Shown here one piece after another: positions 3,001-6,000 of a stretch of DNA of 9,055 nucleotides (positions are counted from its first letter, which is position 1; every line of letters begins with the position of its first letter). The position numbers are program-made. Source of the DNA: a virus. Its lineage: Duplodnaviria > Heunggongvirae > Uroviricota > Caudoviricetes. The DNA lies in IMG/VR virus record IMGVR_UViG_2690316273_000018, positions 1 to 9,055 of that record, one strand, 5' to 3'.

Positions 3001-6000
3001 GCCATGTCGGAGGATGACGTCCGGCCGGAGGCAATGCGTCGTTTTGAACTGATGGTGGAAGAAGCGGCGCGTCACGCAGAGGAGGCGAAGAAGAATGCCG
3101 GAGAGGCGGAGACATCAGCGAGGAATGCCGGCATATCAGCCAGTCAGGCAGAAGAGAGCGCTGCAAATGCTGACACTTCAGCAGGGGATGCATCGGAGTC
3201 AGCCCGGCAGGCGGCAGAAAGTGCAGCCGCTGCAAAGCAGTCAGAGGAGGCGTCCTCGTCCTCGGCCTCTGCGGCCGCTCAAAAAGCCAGTGAGTCATCA
3301 CAAAGTGCAGCAGATGCTGAATTGTCAAGAAAGACGGCAGAAAGTGCAGCCGGTAATGCAGCCAGGGATGCAACGACCGCAACAGAAAAAGCCCGGGAGT
3401 CAGCAGAAAGCGCACAGTCAGCGGAACAAAGCAGGATAGCGGCGGAAGAGGCCGTAAACCGAATCCCCACCGTGGTGGGACCTCCCGGGCCAAAGGGGGA
3501 ACAGGGGCCCGCGGGTCCTCAGGGGCCGAAGGGTGATAAGGGAGAGCGCGGTGACACCGGCCCTGTCGGGGCAACCGGCGAACGGGGACCGGCAGGTGAT
3601 GCTGGTCCGGCAGGCCCGCAGGGGCCGAAAGGTGACATGGGAGAGCGGGGAGAGACCGGTCTGACGGGAAATGCAGGTCCACAGGGTCCAAAGGGAGATA
3701 CCGGTGCGGCAGGCCCGGCAGGCCCACAGGGACCGAAAGGAGAAACAGGTGCGGCTGGCCCGGTGGGGGCAACCGGACCTCAGGGACCGAAGGGCGACCC
3801 GGGGGAGACACAAATNGTGCTGACCGGAAGTGATGACGGTCGCCACAGCAACACGTCTCTGGCGTGGGGGGCTGGCGTGCAGTTTAACCCGACCGAATCC
3901 GTGGCCATTGATATTGCTTATGAAGGCTCCGGCAGTGGCGACTGGCGCACTGACGGTTTCATCGTGGGTGTCGGTTATAAGTTCTGATTAGCCAGGTAAC
4001 ACAGTGTTATGACAGCCCGCCGGTTCAGGCGGGCTTTTTTGTGGGGTGAATATGGCAGTAAAGATTTCAGGTGTACTGAAAGACGGCACAGGAAAACCGG
4101 TAGAGAACTGCACCATTCAACTGAAAGCCAGACGGACCAGCAGCACGGTGGTGGTGAACACGGTGGCCTCTGAAAATCCGGATGAAGCCGGTCGTTACAG
4201 CATGGACGTTGAGTACGGTCAGTACAGCGTCATTCTGTTGGTGGAAGGATTCCCGCCGTCACATGCCGGGACCATCACCGTGTATGAAGATTCTCAACCC
4301 GGTACGCTGAATGATTTTCTCGGTGCCATGTCGGAGGATGACGTCCGGCCGGAGGCACTGCGCCGTTTTGAACTGATGGTGGAAGAGGTGGCGCGTCACG
4401 CTGAGGAGGCGAAGAAGAATGCCGGAGAGGCGGAGACGTCAGCGAGGAATGCCGGCATATCAGCCAGTCAGGCAGAAGAGAGCGCTGCAAATGCTGACAC
4501 TTCAGCAGGGGATGCATCGGAGTCAGCCCGGCAGGCGGCAGAAAGTGCAGCCGCTGCAAAGCAGTCAGAGGAGGCGTCCTCGTCCTCGGCCTCTGCGGCC
4601 GCTCAAAAAGCCAGTGAGTCATCACAAAGTGCAGCAGATGCTGAATTGTCAAGAAAGACGGCAGAAAGTGCAGCCGGTAATGCAGCCAGGGATGCAACGA
4701 CCGCAACAGAAAAAGCCCGGGAGTCAGCAGAAAGCGCACAGTCAGCGGAACAAAGCAGGATAGCGGCGGAAGAGGCCGTAAACCGAATCCCCACCGTGGT
4801 GGGACCTCCCGGGCCAAAGGGGGAACAGGGGCCCGCGGNNNNNNNNNNNAGTTTAACCCGACCGAATCCGTGGCCATTGATATTGCTTATGAAGGCTCCG
4901 GCAGTGGCGACTGGCGCACTGACGGTTTCATCGTGGGTGTCGGTTATAAGTTCTGATTAGCCAGGTAACACAGTGTTATGACAGCCCGCCGGTTCAGGCG
5001 GGCTTTTTTGTGGGGTGAATATGGCAGTAAAGATTTCAGGTGTACTGAAAGACGGCACAGGAAAACCGGTAGAGAACTGCACCATTCAACTGAAAGCCAG
5101 ACGGACCAGCAGCACGGTGGTGGTGAACACGGTGGCCTCTGAAAATCCGGATGAAGCCGGTCGTTACAGCATGGACGTTGAGTACGGTCAGTACAGCGTC
5201 ATTCTGTTGGTGGAAGGATTCCCGCCGTCACATGCCGGGACCATCACCGTGTATGAAGATTCTCAACCCGGTACGCTGAATGATTTTCTCGGTGCCATGT
5301 CGGAGGATGACGTCCGGCCGGAGGCACTGCGCCGTTTTGAACTGATGGTGGAAGAGGTGGCGCGTCACGCTGAGGAGGCGAAGAAGAATGCCGGAGAGGC
5401 GGAGACGTCAGCGAGGAATGCCGGCATATCAGCCAGTCAGGCAGAAGAGAGCGCTGCAAATGCTGACACTTCAGCAGGGGAGGCATCGGAGTCAGCCCGG
5501 CAGGCGGCAGAAAGTGCAGCCTCAGCAAAGCAGTCAGAGGATGCGTCCTCGTCCTCGGCTTCTGCGGCCGCTCAAAAAGCCAGTGAGTCATCACAAAGTG
5601 CAGCAGAAGCTGAATTGTCAAGAAAGACGGCAGAAAGTGCAGCCGGTAATGCAGCCAGGGATGCAACGACCGCAACAGAAAAAGCCCGGGAGTCAGCAGA
5701 AAGCGCACAGTCAGCGGAACAAAGCAGGATAGCGGCGGAAGAGGCCGTAAACCGAATCCCCACCGTGGTGGGACCTCCCGGGCCAAAGGGGGAACAGGGG
5801 CCCGCGGGTCCTCAGGGGCCGAAGGGTGATAAGGGAGAGCGCGGTGACACCGGCCCTGTCGGGGCAACCGGCGAACGGGGACCGGCAGGTGATGCTGGTC
5901 CGGCAGGCCCGCAGGGGCCGAAAGGTGACAGGGGAGAGCGGGGAGAGACCGGTCTGACGGGAAATGCAGGTCCACAGGGTCCAAAGGGAGATACCGGTGC

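Follow-up and report, generated by a model that had tools for sequence, protein, structure and literature searches.

In phage lambda the lom gene lies between J and stf, and this position is also held by both of the lom alleles considered here, the intact gene of the locus under study (A type) and its counterpart in other prophages (B type). The lambdoid prophages of EPEC and EHEC are mosaics in which divergent lom bodies are combined with a shared, recombining module consisting of the lom 3' end and stf, and this underlying biology is already well known. The locus described below has the gene order of these prophages (J, lom, stf, a protein with a tail fibre C-terminal domain, then effectors, with nleB2, nleC, nleH and nleA among those of the group). 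Here, too, divergent lom bodies give way abruptly to a lom 3' end, terminator and stf that are nearly identical, and the Stf of the locus likewise occurs with either lom. Once a surplus of repeated sequence is removed nothing distinguishes it from them, and it matches a finished genome at 99.9%.

A second group of described cases, to which the repeated sequence itself can be compared, is technical. Joins made from read pairs insert N characters, and greedy scaffolding algorithms can join falsely (PMC5320598). GapFiller extends both edges of a gap, closes it only when the extensions overlap and the resulting length fits the estimate, and leaves open mainly those gaps that lie in repeats (PMC3446322). 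Artefacts of the SSPACE and GapFiller type (PMC5320598, PMC3446322) resemble the present locus in having Ns at novel junctions, gaps that remain open in a repeat, the same multi-copy module on either side of the gap and a structure that is missing from finished genomes. The locus differs from them in that its redundancy, at 2.3 kb, is of unusual length and combines alleles of different prophages, which makes it look like a tandem array with "gene fragments".

The window, by which we mean the whole stretch of 9,055 nt that was analysed, corresponds to bases 3-9057 of the draft WGS scaffold CYEU01000012.1 (161,715 bp; assembly GCA_001284625.1) and represents the tail end of a lambdoid prophage of E. 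coli. Its features are listed in Table 1. The first base of the record already lies within gene J, 2 nt ahead of the window, so the assembly is broken again in the prophage tail module, as fits an isolate that carries several near-identical prophages. The J gene call has the Pfam domains Ig_J, Phage_Tail_Tip and Ig_GpJ_C, and the first stf copy contains an N-terminal domain together with Ala/Glu-rich and collagen-like GXY repeats. The module made of the lom 3' end, the terminator and stf is present three times, at start-to-start spacings of 1,324 and 969 nt, once in each of the three blocks (A, B and C) that the N characters separate. The second and third modules begin with lom fragments, referred to here as stubs 1 and 2.

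Table 1. Features of the 9,055-nt window.
Feature	Position	Strand	Basis or remark
Gene J, 3' part (tail tip / host specificity)	25-1971	+	ORF; gpJ annotation in 14EC007 and Z1323HEC0423
Intact lom, allele A, 207 aa (Ail/Lom outer-membrane beta-barrel)	2040-2663	+	ORF, Pfam, annotation
Terminator-like hairpin and T-run between lom and stf	2690-2711	+	Repeats at 4014-4035 and 4983-5004
stf copy A (side tail fibre)	2728-3815	+	Cut at nt 1088 by N
Surplus without counterpart in finished genomes, 2,293 nt (1,324 + 969)	3816-6108	.	
Single N, scaffold join or unclosed gap 1	3816	.	Also in deposited record
Stub 1, last 171 nt of lom allele B; opens block B	3817-3987	+	
stf copy B, first 787 nt, ended by N run	4052-4838	+	
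Run of 11 N, scaffold gap 2	4839-4849	.	Also in deposited record
Stub 2, last 107 nt of lom allele B; opens block C	4850-4956	+	
stf copy C, full length, 437 aa	5021-6334	+	ORF
Tail fibre C-terminal-domain protein, 89 aa, PF06820	6336-6605	+	
nleB2	6782-7762		
nleC remnant	7796-8086		
nleH, frameshifted	8395 onward		

The initial annotation of this sequence held that the two lom fragments represent a different allele from the intact lom upstream, and the alignments agree. Stub 1 is identical to the 3' end of the intact gene (2493-2663) at 120 of 171 nt (70.2%) and at 39 of 57 residues in the encoded protein, and the convergence is confined to the last 60 nt (96.7% identity, against 46.9% over the first 64 nt and 68.1% over the next 47 nt). 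At 70% nucleotide identity to the A type over 171 nt, the stubs are not copies of the local lom. Stub 2 is identical to 3881-3987 over all of its 107 nt and is 84.1% identical to allele A. A segment, SDDGRHSNTSLAWGAGV, had been ascribed to both fragments; that statement has to be restricted to the first, as stub 2, which is 107 nt long and starts at FNPTESVAIDIAYEG (FNPTES...), does not encode it. The divergence extends over the whole gene, the full-length products of lom A (207 aa) and of the B-type lom (199 aa, taken from the nleA-carrying prophage L002) sharing 96 identical residues in a global alignment of 207 columns.

Both alleles belong to the Ail/Lom family. The product of the intact gene is WP_001815756.1, a RefSeq Ail/Lom family protein that is also present in the closest complete genomes, and the precomputed Pfam assignments place PF06316 (Ail_Lom) and PF13505 on the gene call at 2040-2663. 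The 199-aa lom genes of B type carry PF06316 as well, and the stubs therefore derive from a member of this family. The family domain is thus carried by the intact gene and the full-length B-type gene alike, whereas the stubs lack a start codon, a signal peptide and most of the barrel and are not genes themselves. They comprise only the last 56 and 35 codons of lom, preceded by stf and then N, and so are not complete expressible genes.

As to the source of the B-type sequence, all 171 nt of stub 1 agree with the end of the full-length Ail/Lom gene in L002 (199 aa, WP_001230489.1), which in Z1323HEC0399 lies in a separate, nleA-carrying lambdoid prophage, and the first 120 nt of the stub (3817-3936) are 100% identical to the Lom genes of phages BP-4795, 2851, cdtI, YYZ-2008 and others. 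The whole of the block that it opens, 3817-4838, is colinear in one piece with a normal lom-stf segment, at 99.7-99.9% identity in the best-matching complete genomes and with 2 mismatches to L002, and in 708 complete genomes there is a place with coverage of 80% or more. On the strength of the exact 171-nt match, the colinearity of the block and the phage Lom matches, we take the stubs to be an ordinary lom 3' end, of the B type that is common in other lambdoid prophages. The initial annotation was probably right, then, in looking to another prophage for their origin, a proposal that stands as regards the source of the sequence and falls as regards the tandem structure that was thought to hold it at this locus.

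Contaminating DNA or a mixed culture might in principle have supplied the B-type lom in place of a second prophage of the same genome. Carriage of several lom-stf prophages is the norm, however, places that match block 3817-4838 numbering a median of 2 and a maximum of 14 per complete genome, and genomes with both lom alleles exist: in at least two complete genomes, Z1323HEC0399 and Z1323HEC0422, the A-type nleB2 locus and a B-type lom-stf are found in different prophages. We regard a foreign source of this kind as exceedingly unlikely.

The interpretation of the stubs is changed by the N characters at both junctions. The N at the first and the 11 N at the second are the only non-ACGT characters in the 9,055 nt, they coincide exactly with the two stf-to-lom junctions, and they adjoin the starts of stubs 1 and 2. 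The initial annotation did not mention them, and they occur in the deposited NCBI record too. Junction 1 leads from about nt 1088 of stf to nt -171 of lom, counted from the lom 3' end, and junction 2 from about nt 787 of stf to nt -107 of lom (about -118 when the 11 N are counted). The two junctions thus fall at different positions in both genes, and breakpoint homology is absent. A tandem duplication would reuse one junction, so the difference between the two counts against a real tandem. The repeat units, of 1,324 and 969 nt, share no common junction, nor are they of one allele with the local gene, the stubs being of B type and the 5' parts of stf also differing, by about 30 SNPs.

Neither junction was recovered elsewhere. 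With a 240-nt query spanning junction 1, no place covering at least 80% was found in 5,426 complete E. coli genomes, and none of the 334 matching phage records covered at least 80% of it. An exact-pattern scan for the same junction, with N treated as a wildcard, found none in viral_contigs, genome_contigs or metagenome_contigs, in a search where a literal N in the subject may go unmatched, so that this negative is a weak one. The 251-nt query for junction 2 was covered to at least 80% at 20 places, all of them in two pieces with spans of 718-835 bp; the covering places checked have the normal lom-then-stf order, and the order of junction 2 was not found among them. In L002 and L004 for both junction queries, and in L003 for junction 1, the piece from lom precedes the one from stf, opposite to the arrangement in the window. 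Two-piece matches of this kind (H56, H68) were considered as junction carriers and rejected, as they have the normal lom-then-stf order and had been paired by a proximity rule.

At junction 1 stf remains in frame with lom, for which the chance is 1 in 3, and at junction 2 the frame is broken. The public record has gene calls running over both joins. One is a 419-aa stf-X-lom "fusion" (window 2728-3987; record 2730-3989), and the other is a 302-aa stf that ends in XXXX and out-of-frame lom (window 4052-4960; record 4054-4962).

Comparison with finished genomes shows what the locus looks like where it is fully assembled. It is present in 97 complete genomes, and its length is about 6.76 kb in the 23 best-ranked rows without an IS insertion, two records with IS insertions among the best-ranked having been set aside for this comparison. 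At the closest complete genome locus there are 6,762 bp, compared with 9,055 in the window, a difference of 2,293 nt, and the closest complete genomes have a single lom and a single stf. The surplus takes in the single N, block B and the 11 N, and reaches 1,259 nt into block C. When it is taken out, window positions 1-3815 and 6109-9055 are colinear with Z1323HEC0423 with 7 mismatches in 6,762 nt, compared with 52 and 80 mismatches for alternative collapses of the repeat. Positions 2004-3815 match three complete genomes at 99.9%.

These results bear directly on whether illegitimate or homeologous recombination with a second prophage could have built a genuine lom'-stf' array here, with truncated stf-lom fusions and with Ns that are simply uncalled bases. 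The deposited sequence does show such an array, junction 1 is in frame and gives an ORF of 419 aa, and this module does take part in recombination among lambdoid prophages, one and the same Stf being found behind A-type or B-type lom. Yet N masks both junctions, which are unlike each other, have no homology at their breakpoints and occur in no complete genome or phage record searched; deletion of the surplus yields a 99.9% match to a finished genome; and units with exact blocks of 400-632 nt in common are beyond what a short-read assembly can genuinely resolve. We therefore consider a rearrangement of this kind very unlikely. That the array is real in the particular form in which it is written, with two truncated stf copies each followed by a foreign lom 3' end, one of them an in-frame 419-aa Stf-Lom fusion, and with Ns as uncalled bases, we hold to be extremely unlikely.

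The Ns at both junctions, the draft status of the record, the absence of the junctions elsewhere, the difference between them and the colinearity with a normal locus that is restored on deletion of the surplus lead us to abandon the assumption in the initial annotation that tandem lom'-stf' units are physically present at the locus. The stub tandem is almost certainly not a real feature of the genome. By comparison with the closest finished genome, the real locus most probably consists of J, lom A, one stf, the fibre C-terminal-domain protein, nleB2, the nleC remnant and nleH, and analogy with Z1323HEC0423 would favour lom A as the allele in front of the nleB2-linked stf.

It is very likely that the tandem array and its lom "fragments" are a scaffolding or gap-filling artefact that pulled in reads from at least one other lom-stf prophage. 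The isolate would carry at least two lambdoid prophages with different lom bodies, an A type of 207 aa and a B type of 199 aa, that share a near-identical module, too long to be spanned by a short-read library, in which the lom 3' end (the last ~60 nt) is followed by the terminator and most of stf. A scaffolder, a gap-filler or both would then have strung together blocks 1-3815, 3817-4838 and 4850-9055 (A, B and C) with N placeholders. Blocks B and C open inside the B-type lom, which would follow if the reads that went into them came from the other prophage, or from more than one, and as all three blocks then pass through the same stf the module would be seen three times. Extension of both edges of an unclosable gap through the repeat could leave redundant copies flanking the residual N, with the alleles of whichever prophage's reads won. 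The lom "fragments" would on this account be block ends and not truncated genes. Neither CYEU01 nor GCA_001284625 was found in the full-text papers searched or in the supplement text of the Sanger pipeline paper, so the assembler software, and with it the specific software behaviour behind the joins, is something that we only infer.

Long stretches are exactly the same in pairs of blocks: 400 nt in A and B, 322 and 177 nt in A and C, and 632 and 199 nt in B and C. Six sites (4513-4639 compared with 5482-5608) distinguish block B from block C, and at all of them B agrees with A, so that one or two further prophages may have contributed to blocks B and C. For block C over 4850-6700 the finished genomes offer no match better than 99.5%, which suggests that this block is itself a chimera of two prophages. 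Positions 5609-6340 are identical, with 0 mismatches, to the stf of the nleA-carrying prophage L002, and 5609-6167 are identical to L016 except at site 5931. Across this shared part short reads cannot phase lom.

The scaffold could also be an artefact of a different composition, in which block C is phased correctly, with the B-type lom truly in front of nleB2, and block A (J, lom A and the stf 5' part) comes from another prophage and was misplaced upstream. Finished genomes do have the identical Stf behind a 199-aa lom with nleB-family, nleC and nleH genes downstream (L007, L011), and in 14EC047, which has two J/lom A/stf/nleB2 prophages, the best match of block A lies outside the nleH-linked one. 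Against such a composition, block C has no finished-genome counterpart above 99.5% over 4850-6700, block A together with the tail of block C matches Z1323HEC0423 at 99.9%, and the phasing of block C would have had to cross 5609-6340, the part that short reads cannot bridge. We judge it very unlikely, and prefer a locus with lom A ahead of a single stf into which reads of another prophage were drawn.

The two prophages of 14EC047 (NZ_CP024155.1) are separate, each with J, lom A, stf, the fibre C-terminal-domain protein and nleB2. They differ downstream, one having espK next to potB and the other nleC', nleH and nleF.

The full-length Stf of copy C is itself widespread. Exact copies of the 437-aa product from the ATG start are recorded in the public assembly collection, where 34 blocks have it and the lom in front encodes 199 aa in some and 207 aa in others; an exact lookup of the 439-aa product from a GTG start gave no match. 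The 437-aa protein occurs twice in the finished genome CP180607.1, where two prophages share 1,803 bp at 99.2% and have lom bodies of ~52% identity. In the window, too, there is a mosaic boundary inside lom (2604-2750 compared with 3928-4074), at which bodies of ~52% nucleotide identity give way to a last 60 nt, terminator and stf start of ~99%. Since the same Stf stands behind either lom type, with both types in CP180607.1, the conserved 3' end of lom would seem to serve as a joint for recombination.

The stub array is of little biological interest and is not novel, and its value is that of a practical warning. Where N characters lie beside what seems to be a rearrangement in a draft record, they should be the first thing to check. 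The products of the two artefactual joins are now in public protein collections, where they pollute the databases, and counts of prophage tail-fibre or lom genes made from such drafts can be inflated.

Downstream of the repeated module the effector genes are partly decayed. The nleC gene is reduced to a remnant of 96 codons, and a frameshift near 8480-8520 divides nleH (within 8395-9055). Both genes are annotated as pseudogenes in these same states in finished 14EC007 and Z1323HEC0423, so the decay looks real and not the result of sequencing error.

Two short repeats were also seen in the window. A direct repeat of 45 nt, with copies 89% identical, is found at 6641-6685, shortly upstream of nleB2, and at 8334-8378, upstream of nleH and ~90 nt downstream of a remnant of a tail-fibre-assembly gene; effector cassettes may have their boundaries there. 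A second repeat, of 41 nt and 71% identity, lies at 6116-6156 in the C-terminal part of Stf and at 6426-6466 in the 89-aa ORF, where the copies encode RLGPASIIETNSNG and RLGPADILESDENG, and hints at a segment shared or duplicated between the fibre and its downstream partner.
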